NCBI GenBank assembly: GCA_951406725.2
Contig: OX597839.1
Coordinates: 40,796,001 to 40,860,000, forward strand
Reading direction: 5' to 3'
From: Octopus vulgaris
Taxonomy: Eukaryota
DNA length: 64,000 nucleotides
In this document: one piece after another, positions 5,908 through 47,266 of the stretch
Layout of the letters: each line of letters opens with the position of its first letter
How positions within the stretch are numbered: position 1 is the first letter of the stretch
Translations under genes and position numbers: made by a program
Notes under the pieces: model-generated
The model's database searches: none
Seen by the model: only the letters and a program-made list of their open reading frames with translations
Told to the model about the DNA's origin: nothing

Positions 5908-5945
<38 letters not shown>

Positions 5946-6173
5946 TAGAGAGATATATATATACGGGGGTGTGTGATTGTGTATAGAAGAATATATTGAT
6001 AAAAGGAATTGCAACCTTGTCTGATTTTCACGTTTTATTTACAATCTTATAATGATATAAGATAATATAATATAATAAAATAAAATAAAATAAAATAATA
6101 GAATGCATTAAATGTCTCACATTCTATATATGAACTATATATATATATCATGCATTAAATATATGCATGGATA

Positions 6174-7644: not shown

Positions 7645-8250
7645 GCCGCTGGGAGAACCGTTAGTATTCCCGGCAAAATGTTTTACGTTCTCAGTTCAAA
7701 TTCTGCCGGGACCGACTTTGCCTTTTATCCTTTCGGGGTCAATAAACTAAGTACCAGTTGAACTCTGGGGTCGATGTAATCGACTGACCCTTCCACCGAC
7801 ATTTCTGACCTTGTGCCAAAATTTGAATCTGTTATCATTATTATCATTAAGGCGGTGAGCTGACAGGTAAAAATACTGGCATTTTGTCCGTCTTTACGTT
7901 CTGAGTTCAAACTCCGTCGGGACCGACTTTGTCTTTTATCATTTCGGGGTCAATAAAATAAGTACCAGTTGAACTCTGGGGTCGATGTAATCGACTGACC
8001 CCTTCCACCGACATTTCTGACCTTGTGCCAAAATTTGAATCTGTTATCATTATTATCATTAAGGCGGTGAGCTGACAGGTAAAAATACTGGCATTTTGTC
8101 CGTCTTTACGTTCTGAGTTCAAACTCCGTCGGGACCGACTTTGTCTTTTATCATTTCGGGGTCAATGAAATAAGTACCAGTTGAACTCTGGGTTCGATGT
8201 AATCGATTGACCCCCTTCCTCCGAAATTTATGGCCTTGTGCCAAAATTTT
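7645..8250 (+). mobile_element. Tandem triplication of SINE family A (period about 212 bp)
   Basis: TTTACGTTCT(C/G)AGTTCAAA recurs at about 7682, 7893 and 8105, with near-identical intervening sequence. Confidence 0.85.
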
Positions 8251-43636: not shown

Positions 43637-44114
43637 TTCATGACTAACGGTGATTTACGTTCCTGCAGGTGCAAACAAAAACAACGAGTGAACCTGAATA
43701 GAGTGGCTTTTCCTATCGGAAGCTGGTGGACATTCACGTTCGGCCATTTTGTTTTTTCATTGCATTCGCTTTCATGACCTCCATCACCATGTGGTGCGTG
43801 CGTGATCGTGCGCGTGCACGAATACGTACCTATGTGTGTGTGTTTGTGTGTGTGTACATATATAATACATTATGTATATATGTATATATATATATGTATG
43901 TATGTATATATATGTATGTTTGTATGTATGTATATATATATATATATATACATAGATATAGATATATATATATAGAGAGAGAGAGAAAATGAGAGAGAGG
44001 AAGATTCGCATATATATGTATATAAATAAATTTATATATCGAGAGAGAGACGTATATACATGTGTAAGTTATATATATGGATGGATGAATAGGATATATA
44101 TATATATGTATATA

Positions 44115-44160
<46 letters not shown>

Positions 44161-44387
44161 TAATTAATCAATATAGGGTGGCAAGGAAAATTTTGTAGAA
44201 TTTTTTTGCCACCAGCGGCCAGTGGGAAAAAATTAAATAGTCATAGACCATTTTTAAGTTCAACATTAACAATTAAGGAACGGCCATAATAGGCCATTCA
44301 CCCACTAGAAATAACAGCCAAAGCTTCTACCGCAAATAAAGATCAATTCCGTAAACAGGAGAAAATTAAAAAAACATTTACCCTGTA

Positions 44388-44494
44388 ATTTCTTGTACGG
44401 TATACCGTTTCATCTGCTGTTTAATGGTAAACTAACCTGATTAAATTAAATCAAGCCAATCTTCCATAAGCCCTCAGATTCTTCAGCAAGAAAT
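44388..44494 (-). ncRNA. Type I hammerhead ribozyme (copy 1, inverted arm)
   Basis: Reverse complement of 44809-44915. Confidence 0.85.
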
Positions 44495-44808
44495 AGCTCA
44501 AGTCGGAACAGATATTTACACGAGGCATACCCAATCCTGCCAAGGCAATATCTGACCTAAAATTTTCAAATCGTCGCACTCGCGCCAAATTTATCGGCAG
44601 CAAATAAATCGTCGATTCCATTACGGAATTAACCAAAAAATTCATAATTAATCAATTATGAATTTTTTGGTTAATTCCGTAATGGAATCGACGATTTATT
44701 TGCTGCCGATAAATTTGGCGCGAGTGCGACGATTTGAAAATTTTAGGTCAGATATTGCCTTGGCAGGATTGGGTATGCCTCGTGTAAATATCTGTTCCGA
44801 CTTGAGCT

Positions 44809-44915
44809 ATTTCTTGCTGAAGAATCTGAGGGCTTATGGAAGATTGGCTTGATTTAATTTAATCAGGTTAGTTTACCATTAAACAGCAGATGAAACGGTA
44901 TACCGTACAAGAAAT
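44809..44915 (+). ncRNA. Type I hammerhead ribozyme (copy 2), predicted cleavage after A44907
   Basis: Stem I ATTTCTTG/CAAGAAAT (8 bp). Core CTGAAGA 44817-44823. Stem II ATCTG...CAGAT with a long hairpin insert. GAAAC 44892-44896. Stem III AC-GG-tata-CC-GT. GUA cleavage triplet. Confidence 0.85.
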
Positions 44916-45291
44916 TACAGGGTAAATGTTTTTTTAATTTTCTCCTGTTTACGGAATTGATCTTTATTTGCGGTAGAAGCTTTGGCTGTTATTTCTAGTG
45001 GGTGAATGGCCTATTATGGCCGTTCCTTAATTGTTAATGTTGAACTTAAAAATGGTCTATGACTATTTAATTTTTTCCCACTGCCGCTGGTGGCAAAAAA
45101 ATTCTACAAAATTTTCCTTGCCACCCTATATTGATTAATTATGAATTTTTTGGTTAATTCCGTAATGGAATCGACGATTTATTTGCTGCCGATAAATTTG
45201 GCGCGAGTGCGACGATTTGAAAATTTTAGGTCAGATATTGCCTTGGCAGGATTGGGTATGCCTCGTGTAAATATCTGTTCCGACTTGAGCT

Positions 45292-45398
45292 ATTTCTTGC
45301 TGAAGAATCTGAGGGCTTATGGAAGATTGGCTTGATTTAATTTAATCAGGTTAGTTTACCATTAAACAGCAGATGAAACGGTATACCGTACAAGAAAT
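45292..45398 (+). ncRNA. Type I hammerhead ribozyme (copy 3), predicted cleavage after A45390
   Basis: Same sequence as 44809-44915, 483 bp downstream. Confidence 0.85.
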
Positions 45399-45516
45399 TA
45401 CAGGGTAAATGTTTTTTTAATTTTCTCCTGTTTACGGAATTGATCTTTATTTGCGGTAGAAGCTTTGGCTGTTATTTCTAGTGGGTGAATGGCCTATTAT
45501 GGCCGTTCCTTAATTG

Positions 45517-45551
<35 letters not shown>

Positions 45552-46034
45552 ATATATACATATAGATGCATATAGATACCTATATATATGTATGTATGTA
45601 TGTATGCTGTATAAGTATACAAATATATATTCATCTATTACTAGTAGTAGTAGTAGTAGTAGTAGTAAGAGGAGGAGGAAGAAGAGGTAGTGGTGGGGGA
45701 GATGAGGAGGGGAGGAGGAGATGGAGGAGAAGGATAGGAGGATGTGGTTGTAGTGGTGGTGGTGGTGGTGGATGACGACGACGATGATGATGATGTTGAC
45801 GTTCATGTTACTGTGTTGTTATTATATATGCGCGTATTTACTTGGTTCCTTTATTTTATTTTATTCCATTCGTTGTTTCCGTGTTAAAGGCGATACTGGA
45901 CGATGATGGACAAGTGATTAGGACCTTGGAAGGATAAAGGGGCCACAAGGAGTGATTGTGGCAGTTTGAATGGTGGGAAGAGGAGAGAGGTGGGGTAGAA
46001 GGAGGAAGGAGCGGGGGAGTAGAAAAAAGAAAAC

Positions 46035-46449
46035 GACGACGAAGAAGAAGAAGAAGAAGAAGAAGAAGAAGAAGAAGAAGAAGAAGAAGAAGAAGAAGAA
46101 GAAGAAGACGAAGAAGAAGAAGAAGAAGAAGAAGAAGAAGAAGAAGAAGCAGAAGAAGAAGAAGACGAAGAAGAAGACGAAGAAGAAGAAGAAGAAGAAG
46201 AAGAAGAAGAAGAAGAAGAAGAAGAAGAAGAAGAAGAAGAAGCAGAAGAAGAAGAAGAAAAGAAGAAATGAAGAAGAAGAAAAGAAGAAGAAAAAAAGAG
46301 AAGAAGAAGAAGAAGAAGAAAAAGAAAAAGAAGAAGAAGAAGAAGAAGAAGAAGAAGAAGCAGAGGAAGAAGAAGAAGAAGAAGAAGAAGAAGAAGAAGA
46401 AGAAGAAGAAGAAGAAGAAGAAGAAGAAGAAGAAGAAGAAGAAGAAGAA
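46035..46449. repeat. (GAA)n of about 400 bp
   Basis: Read directly. Confidence 0.95.
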
Positions 46450-46800
46450 TTTCATGGCTACTGGATCAAAAGATTTGGTGAATGTCATGCACGAATCGTT
46501 GCGTAACTCGACGCCTTGTTAAATGCCGACCAAGGAACACCAGATTGGTTGACATTGGGTAGGACAGTGCTGTGCCAGAAAAACACCGAAAAAGGCAAAA
46601 CGGTAGACAAGTACAGATCGATATTCTGTTTGCCACTTCTATGGAAGTTATTGACTGGAATGCTCGCAGAGTCAATGTACGAACATCTGGAGAGAAAAAA
46701 AATGGAGTCCTGCCACATGAGCAGAAGGGTTGCAAGCGTAAGTGCAGAGATACCAAGGATCAACCCCTGAGAGATAAAACTGTACTCAGAGACTGCAAGA
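46448..46800 (+). pseudogene. Dong/R4-clade non-LTR reverse transcriptase fragment
   Basis: HGYWIKRF...TPDWLTLGRTVLCQK...DKYRSIFCLPLLWKLLTG...HLE / VLPHEQKGCKRKCRDTKDQ.LRDKTVLRDCK, covering the RT domain 0-2 region. Contains a stop and a frameshift. Confidence 0.75.
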
Positions 46801-46821
46801 CGATGATGGAAAGTAATTTAG

Positions 46822-46922
46822 AGGAAGGGATTAAGTCGATTACATCGACCCCAGTGCGTAACTGGTACTTATTTAATCGACCCCGAAAGGATGAAAGGCA
46901 AAGTCGACGTCGGCAGAATTTA
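46822..46922 (-). mobile_element. SINE family A fragment
   Basis: GGATTAAGTCGATTACATCGACCCCAGTGCGTAACTGGTAC...GGATGAAAGGCAAAGTCGAC. Confidence 0.8.
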
Positions 46923-46963
46923 AATATAATAATAATAATAACAACAACAACAACAACAACAAC

Positions 46964-47039
<76 letters not shown>

Positions 47040-47062
47040 TTAATAATAATAATAATAATAAC

Positions 47063-47266
47063 TCAGATACTAGGAAACCCCAAAATGGCAGAAATTCAAA
47101 AGATAGTGGTCATGGGAACTGCTCATATCCTACGCAAAATACTCTCTATGTAATCTCAAGGTTTAATACAAACTTCTTTTTTTTTTTATTTAGTTATTAG
47201 ACATTCACTAGTACAACACCAAAAAAAGAAAAAAACTTATGGCATACTAGGCATAACAACAACGTG
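47063..47266 (+). mobile_element. Dong/R4-clade 3' end inserted in (TAA)n
   Basis: GNPKMAEIQKIVVMGTAHILRKILSM* (LQKxxLLGTAxILR-type C-terminus) plus a short UTR, with (TAA)n on both sides, which is the known Dong target. Confidence 0.7.

Follow-up and report, generated by a model that had tools for sequence, protein, structure and literature searches.

Metazoan retrozymes described from coral, mussel, and axolotl are tandem, noncoding, low-GC units of a few hundred nucleotides, each with one type I hammerhead ribozyme (PMC7229834, PMC7761336). Penelope-like elements (PLEs) were termed "a strong candidate" helper of these retrozymes in the same two accounts (PMC7229834, PMC7761336), and vertebrate retrozymes were judged PLE dependent from co-occurrence and pLTR homology (bioRxiv 10.64898/2026.07.22.740005). 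The vertebrate work, as presented there, draws on homology and distribution, favors local satellite-like expansion, and samples no mollusc (bioRxiv 10.64898/2026.07.22.740005).

PLE insertions are marked by inverted 5′-truncated copies, a tail of 30 to 40 bp that is often found at one end, and a bias toward microsatellites (PMC8557442). How inverted and tandem insertions with a tail at one end arise is stated to be unsolved in that account, which suggests that the tail comes from endonuclease resolution (PMC8557442). A lizard PLE was shown in vitro to nick and extend both target strands, and its tail is the stretch between two internal reverse transcriptase (RT) start sites on the RNA (PMC11167929). 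The protein is predicted to be a dimer, and start site choice was reported without strand difference; hammerhead mutants had no effect on insertion, unprocessed RNA being the main substrate (PMC11167929).

Here, we analyze a 64,000-nt stretch of Octopus vulgaris DNA (the window) that holds an element of this kind. Judged from its sequence, the element displays every feature of a metazoan non-LTR retrozyme that we tested, and the class is a known one. It shares the tandem, noncoding, low-GC organization with a single type I hammerhead per unit outlined above, as well as a structured circle (predicted here) and the presence of PLEs in the same genome (PMC7229834, PMC7761336), and its palindromic helix III loop recalls that of axolotl HHR_Amex1 (PMC7229834). 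Unlike the metazoan retrozymes published in these accounts, it is inserted head to head, in a (TA)n target, and with two fixed outer ends (PMC7229834, PMC7761336), and its helix II has a long hairpin where a terminal loop 2 would be (PMC7229834). Cleavage and circular RNA have been measured for metazoan retrozymes (PMC7229834); for the octopus element, both are predicted.

Results

The insertion and its hammerheads

A type I hammerhead lies on the forward strand at 44809 to 44915, with a predicted GUA cut after 44907, at the very positions given by the initial annotation, and so does the identical copy 483 nt downstream that it reported (45292 to 45398; predicted cut after 45390). A third type I hammerhead occupies the reverse strand (44388 to 44494; predicted cut at 44396), and the catalytic core (CUGANGA, GAAA, and NUH, with three helices and helix I open) is intact in all three copies, as had been claimed for the two on the forward strand. 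In the first copy, on the forward strand, helix I pairs 44809-44816 with 44908-44915 and is followed by the core CTGAAGA (44817 to 44823); helix II (44824-44828/44887-44891) continues as an internal loop with a 14-bp hairpin and leads to GAA (44892 to 44894), helix III (44895-44898/44903-44906), and the GTA cut after 44907. The helix III region as a whole (44895 to 44906, forward strand) is a 12-nt self-complementary palindrome that permits a double (dimeric) hammerhead. The minimum-energy structure of 44800-44925 was this three-way junction (z = -4.55; 0 of 200 shuffles as good) with internal loops in both helix I and helix II. Descriptor and Rfam searches had been put forward as checks, with divided outcome. 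A helix-checking type I descriptor, which gave no match in shuffled sequence (5,000 units and 40 windows), returned exactly three matches in the 64-kb window (44817 and 45300 on the forward strand and 44486 on the reverse strand). Rfam returned no hammerhead, either in the whole window at the gathering score or in 44100-45600 at E ≤ 10, probably because of the 60-nt extension of helix II. The miRNA-type Rfam matches at 44553-44750 were discarded as only a reflection of the central palindrome.

The 483-nt tandem repeat of the initial annotation is real, but the direct repeat extends over only ∼1.8 units (44647 to 45521) and makes up half of a head-to-head insertion of 1,366 bp (44156 to 45521) inside (TA)n. 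The target tract flanks the insertion on the left (44122 to 44155) and on the right (45522 to 45547), and a target-site duplication, longer than 4 bp where metazoan retrozymes have one, is unreadable inside these flanks. Units were numbered from the base after the predicted cut, in a 485-nt numbering. The inverted arm (44156 to 44656, reverse strand; 501 bp) comprises unit positions 225-485 and then 1-241, with an outer 3′ end of the B type defined below, and the direct arm (44647 to 45521, forward strand; 875 bp) comprises 225-485, 1-485, and 1-131, with an A-type outer 3′ end; the insertion thus ends at unit position 241 on the left and 131 on the right. Both arms stop at the same unit position (∼225), where they share the insertion center, a 10-nt near-palindromic overlap at 44647-44656. 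The predicted monomer or circle, 483 nt in this copy, corresponds to 44908-45390 on the forward strand, and its sense strand is highly structured. On the same strand, 45039-45146 is the ∼106-nt "tail" between the putative RT start sites A (45038) and B (∼45142-45146).

Broken RT-like and C-terminal fragments at ∼46440-47150 of the window adjoin (GAA)n and (TAA)n tracts; we take them to resemble R4/Dong non-LTR elements, and Pfam gave nothing convincing. A 212-bp unit, SINE-like by eye, occurs in 2.7 tandem copies of 95% identity at 7682-8249, and a short nonrepetitive stretch with a possible splice acceptor (43650 to 43800) lies ∼500 bp to the left of the insertion.

Ribozyme conservation and dimer potential

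Of 44 distinct ribozyme copies, 31 were aligned; the other 13 had indels or shifted 5′ ends and were excluded. Positions C3, U4, G5, A6, and G8 were invariant in all 31 variants, N7 was A, C, G, or U, and the cut triplet was GUA or GUC. Four base pairs were changed on both sides, including the helix I pair that adjoins the core, and 99.1% of cells were paired; this covariation traces to ∼3 independent events among related sequences, and the shuffle control therefore yields no probability. The compensatory changes and the free N7 point to selection on the predicted ribozyme.

The 12-nt helix III palindrome was predicted to be far more stable as a duplex (-18.8 kcal/mol) than as a hairpin (-2.9 kcal/mol). 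Self-complementarity is kept in the subfamilies with TATA and TGCA loops; it remains complete in the main older subfamily, whose loop differs (-17.5). Two copies co-folded as a double hammerhead were predicted at -80.6 versus -67.6 for two single ones, and dimeric cleavage has been described for axolotl retrozymes (PMC7229834). From this modeling we infer that multimers would be cut fast and a lone circle slowly.

One insertion (L046, 2242 to 3190) carries a core-breaking A>G change, GAAA to GGAA, in both units, so that release of its template by its own ribozyme is not simply possible. A ribozyme-dead template was copied at this locus, one possible cause being editing of the circle before copying.

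The unit family and its dispersal

The element had been called long for its class, which does not hold: its unit falls inside the published size range (150 to 450 bp in PMC7229834; 51 to 972 bp in bioRxiv 10.64898/2026.07.22.740005). The unit length of 483 nt is right for the window copy and not for the family, in which the commonest full unit measures 485 nt (43 of 134). The window copy is without two G residues of a GGG run near 45083, and several other copies also drop G there. Other genomic copies, expected from the initial annotation, are dispersed over many chromosomes as tandem units that each bear one intact type I hammerhead. The 2.8-Gb assembly, microsatellite rich and made up of ∼30 chromosome-scale contigs, contains 2,768 exact matches to the ribozyme 3′ half (whole count), and exact junction counts over the whole genome gave 661 B-end/TA and 481 A-end/TA junctions, 54 of the latter fitting a narrower pattern of the youngest subfamilies. 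A DNA search with the unit gave at least 266 matches (40 of 1,287 candidates scored). Older subfamilies are 85 to 94% identical, the subfamily structure as a whole spans 85 to 100% identity, and the youth ascribed to the window element was borne out. Arrays reach 17 units, with up to ∼14 units per arm.

The unit has no coding frame, the longest stop-to-stop frame being 66 aa, and the RT plus GIY-YIG open reading frame (ORF) that is the hallmark of an autonomous PLE was not found in the element. GC content was 0.33 to 0.37 in the 1-kb bins holding the unit (below 50%), and no LTR-type organization was seen. The predicted fold of the circle reached -146 kcal/mol for the sense strand (z = -6.3, 40 shuffles) versus -96 for the antisense strand.

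In public runs, the sequence or part of it appeared in 19 of 22 rows, from six studies and three organism labels, and none of the runs holding it is on record as RNA. The whole unit is covered by contigs of four runs that we guessed to be RNA; such contigs show neither strand, ends, nor circles. Depth dips near the cut in two of these four runs, to which we give no weight as evidence. Compared with the sense strand of one array (L036:1700-2184), the guessed-RNA contigs had 11 A>G versus 1 T>C differences in one run (X1) and 9 versus 2 in another (X3), with none in X2 and 2 versus 2 in X6, and 5 of the 12 A>G sites are never G in 229 to 335 genomic units. The excess in X1 and X3 is a hint of A-to-I editing.

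Two fixed outer ends

We mapped 91 loci: the 40 best unit matches minus a duplicate (39), 20 loci picked among the B ends (first 100 in the list), and 32 young A ends (those of the 54 not already included); two loci cut by a gap or by the edge of the retrieved sequence (L069 and L156) were kept outside the arm statistics. The duplicate, L058, has the same truncated insertion and flank as L057, 360 kb apart on C30 and in opposite orientation; it is a segmental duplication or a duplicated haplotype. Outer ends fell at two fixed unit positions, A (∼131; bin 120-140) and B (∼237; bin 222-246), the bins being drawn after seeing the data, and 152 of 156 A/B ends abut (TA)n. Seventy of the 91 loci were head to head and 21 one-armed. 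Among the head-to-head loci, 65 combined A with B, none was A+A or B+B, and 5 had one atypical end; the longer arm ended in A in 29 of the A+B loci and in B in 36. An apparent A+A locus was rejected, its A junctions being internal, rearranged ones and its outermost ends B and A. On C1 and C2, the lists of exact end patterns are complete (65 A and 92 B), and each of the 21 pairs lying head to head within 12 kb was likewise A+B; these pairs overlap partly with the 91 loci. The features of a PLE partner were found, i.e., an inverted 5′-truncated copy, partial tandems, and a microsatellite target. The earlier guess of mobilization by a Penelope-like RT gains support from the (TA)n target, the inverted 5′-truncated arm, and the two fixed start sites, an anatomy absent from the initial annotation.

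A probable single template per insertion and inner stops

Across the 91 loci, we found 29 array-wide substitutions private to their locus, distributed over 18 loci and present in both arms in 18 of the 29 cases; in older subfamilies, "private" is based on thin sampling (20 of 661 B ends). Partial patterns were limited to five sites in three loci (L060, L115, and L156), and single-unit differences numbered 119. Exact genome-wide searches placed all eight matches to 43T>G in one locus, four per arm, and all five matches to 329G>A in one locus. For 288T>A, four of five matches fell in one locus and the fifth in an older copy, 89% identical. The outside match was considered as a parent array and dismissed as an older-subfamily copy; a parent-daughter pair was not found. 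Unit-to-unit junctions across the cut were length exact in 255 of 259 cases, a regularity that speaks against jumping from one cleaved end to another.

The inner ends of the two arms lay within 30 nt of each other (modulo 485) in 24 of 65 loci versus 10.4 by permutation, in 14 of 55 versus 7.1 (p = 0.008) without pairs both stopping in 1-45, and within 10 nt in 12 of 65 pairs versus 4.2; these coincidence counts predate remapping on a dimer reference, in which seven inner ends shifted. In 6 of the 24 coincident loci, including the window insertion, the arms differ by whole turns (1 to 2 units). Array-wide homogeneity, exact junctions, and coincident stops are predicted by a single circle opened at one point. 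On the dimer reference and with exposure allowed for, 41 of 154 arms stopped at unit 1-40, an interval drawn after seeing the data, versus 14.0 expected (p = 3e-10). The loci chosen by ends only gave 24 of 91 stops in this interval versus 9.1 expected, and the 40 nt before the cut had no excess of stops (12 versus 12.5 expected). About 1 pass in 7 ends at unit 1-40. This stop bias could instead stem from a U7 run at 22-28 or a hairpin at 10-41.

Some loci fit a single circle less simply. The 17-unit array of L060 (L060:837-9200) is a patchwork of two haplotypes at two sites; under a single circle, this patchwork and the partial variants of L115 and L156 need template switching or later conversion. 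An older-subfamily insertion lies 290 bp beyond the L060 array. L177/L178 is a compound locus with a rearranged junction: both arms contain repeats of a rearranged piece joined to ∼30 nt of right flanking sequence from the locus itself (L177:800-4450), after which the unit resumes at the helix III loop. Captured flank in both arms points to DNA-templated copying at that locus.

Resident Penelope-like elements

A search with GIY-YIG brought up two PLE families, of 781 and 775 aa, that encode an RT, a CxxC linker, and a GIY-YIG endonuclease in intact ORFs, are young, and end in (TA)n. Median identity was 99.3% among 16 ORFs of 781 aa, and the 775-aa family gave at least 150 near-identical matches. 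Both may be Neptune or Nematis PLEs, and the proposed helper, with its CxxC linker, would be Neptune-like. All 14 head-to-head loci of the 775-aa family, chosen as opposed pairs from the match list, and both of those of the 781-aa family had a tail at one end and one end only (16 of 16 in all). In the 775-aa family, a minimal hammerhead-like motif precedes the A end by 139 nt and the tail measures 30 nt, the counterparts in the retrozyme being 131 nt from cut to A and a tail of ∼106 nt. In the loci surveyed (L090-L106 and L161-L176), each PLE family carries a hammerhead-like motif near its 3′ end, with a nonstandard core (U3/A8 in one and C4 in the other). At 5945-6113 on the reverse strand of the window, we observed the 3′ end and tail of a 775-aa family member, 89% identical, at a TA-rich tract; a candidate helper family thus left a trace in the same window.

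Comparison of the unit with the 781-aa and 775-aa families revealed no significant DNA similarity and no pLTR homology (best E ∼0.3), and both remain candidate helpers. Three apparent links to a helper were rejected: the 18 nt that site A shares with the 781-aa PLE lie antisense inside the PLE ORF and were put down to chance, L072 amounts to a 57-nt stub of the retrozyme and the PLE fragment near it is unrelated, and the PLE fragment at L132 is broken and merely adjacent.

The retrozyme resembles endonuclease-bearing (EN+) PLEs (Neptune; Poseidon PAc) in its partial tandems, inverted 5′-truncated copy, microsatellite target, and one-end tail (PMC8557442, PMC11167929), as well as in having two RT start sites that lie slightly more than 100 nt, or less, downstream of a hammerhead cut (PMC11167929). 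Unlike the EN+ PLEs of these accounts, it has no ORF, a tail of ∼106 nt rather than 30 to 40, and a full-size instead of a minimal hammerhead (PMC8557442, PMC11167929). It also differs from EN+ PLEs in a unit small enough for many turns of copying.

Discussion

We read the element as a non-LTR retrozyme that is self-cleaved, circularized, and copied from both target ends by a PLE RT, with a probability of roughly 0.7. End positions, the A+B rule, the homogeneity pattern, the stop bias, and ribozyme covariation were observed; cleavage, circles, expression, and twin priming are the inferred steps. Arrays would be transcribed, and their hammerheads would cut at GUA or GUC into 485-nt monomers, probably most efficiently as double hammerheads with a palindromic helix III. 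Monomers would be ligated to circles, as other retrozymes and the homogeneity of arrays suggest, and a PLE protein, probably a dimer, would nick both strands of a (TA)n tract. Both DNA ends would prime on the same RNA in a form of twin priming, one at A (∼131) and the other at B (∼237), and each RT would run around the circle for up to ∼14 units per arm, so that a mutation in the one molecule copied round would recur in every unit of both arms. Opening of the template would end synthesis, with the most frequent stop just 3′ of the hammerhead cut, and the cDNAs would then be joined at their 3′ ends via a few bases of overlap or filler into a head-to-head array. The more specific version is a double rolling circle, in which a PLE RT dimer would hold one ribozyme-made circle at two fixed sites and copy it in parallel until the ribozyme reopens it; we give it about an even chance. 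The circle may be A-to-I edited before copying. The mechanism proposed here resembles twin priming of L1 elements, in which one RNA is primed from two target ends and microhomology unites the cDNAs. The second L1 site is variable and the parts are nonoverlapping, whereas both sites are fixed and the arms run several turns in the octopus family.

The template could instead have been a linear multimeric transcript used by the same PLE helper, its hammerheads mostly failing, cleavage setting only some of the 5′ ends, and arrays being copied from portions of older ones. Exact junctions, stops just 3′ of the cut, and the L060 patchwork are accounted for in this way, as is the copying of L046 despite its broken core, and uncut RNA is the main substrate reported for the lizard PLE (PMC11167929). 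A linear template nonetheless leaves unexplained 43T>G, found in all eight units of both arms and nowhere else in 2.8 Gb, and likewise 329G>A. A homogeneous parent array missing from the assembly would only shift the question back one generation, and arms with the same stop that lie 1 to 2 whole units apart (6 of 24) need priming in different units. We regard a linear template as quite unlikely. Only the first arm might have been RNA primed, its cDNA folding back and serving as DNA template for the second, which would be resolved at the other fixed site by the endonuclease; the first arm could still have been copied from a circle. Variants shared between arms would then follow automatically, near-perfect hairpin centers, the window's among them, would be expected (12 of 65 within 10 nt versus 4.2), and the flank captured by L177 is repeated in both arms; the suggestion of tails by endonuclease resolution (PMC8557442) agrees with this. 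Fold-back gives, however, no reason for strict A+B ends with either arm longer (A in 29, B in 36), both strands were extended from RNA start sites in vitro (PMC11167929), and the 71 single-unit differences at positions covered by both arms included no clear mirrored mutation (a test of low power, three cross-arm pairs in L113 being nondiagnostic). A DNA-templated second arm is unlikely in our judgment, and copying of one circle from both target ends remains our preferred reading.

Two further accounts fare worse. PLE-type single insertions might have been expanded and homogenized later by unequal crossing-over and gene conversion, with the hammerhead as a passenger, much as proposed for vertebrate retrozymes, of which 1 of 9 tested elements was reported to cleave in vitro (bioRxiv 10.64898/2026.07.22.740005); the L060 patchwork would fit. 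Such a history demands complete homogenization across inverted arms with little other divergence and few intermediates (29 array-wide versus 5 partial sites), and it is opposed by the compensatory changes and free N7, which point to selection, and by a truncation bias that sits at the cut. We consider it very improbable. Perfect palindromes can also come from fold-back chimeric long reads, and homopolymer indels are frequent among the copies, but an assembly artifact or a contaminant is hardly credible given that dozens of loci, spread over many chromosome-scale contigs, share the fixed A and B ends but differ in their flanks, that the subfamily structure spans 85 to 100% identity, and that public runs of six studies contain the sequence or part of it (19 of 22 rows).

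In the literature searched, we found no cephalopod retrozyme and no head-to-head retrozyme insertions with two start sites; the repeat may already be listed in Repbase or Dfam. The finding is a mechanistic advance and not a new system. Movement of animal retrozymes through circles and PLEs has been proposed since 2020 on co-occurrence, and lately pLTR homology, alone. The octopus family carries direct footprints: its ends are of the PLE type, its arrays have single-molecule homogeneity, and stops fall at the ribozyme cut. It combines such mechanistic footprints with no pLTR homology found to the two resident PLE families, unlike the Xenopus families as reported (bioRxiv 10.64898/2026.07.22.740005). 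Hundreds of young, short, and readable insertions expose a strict rule, one A and one B, which autonomous elements obey too. The mechanism can be examined with an existing assay, since the template has 485 nt, the target is (TA)n, and the same genome contains intact candidates for the helper. If the double rolling circle is true, animal retrozymes would move as circles, with a helper that recognizes structure and not a shared pLTR, and one start site per target strand would be a general mechanism for the tail and the inverted copy of all PLE insertions.
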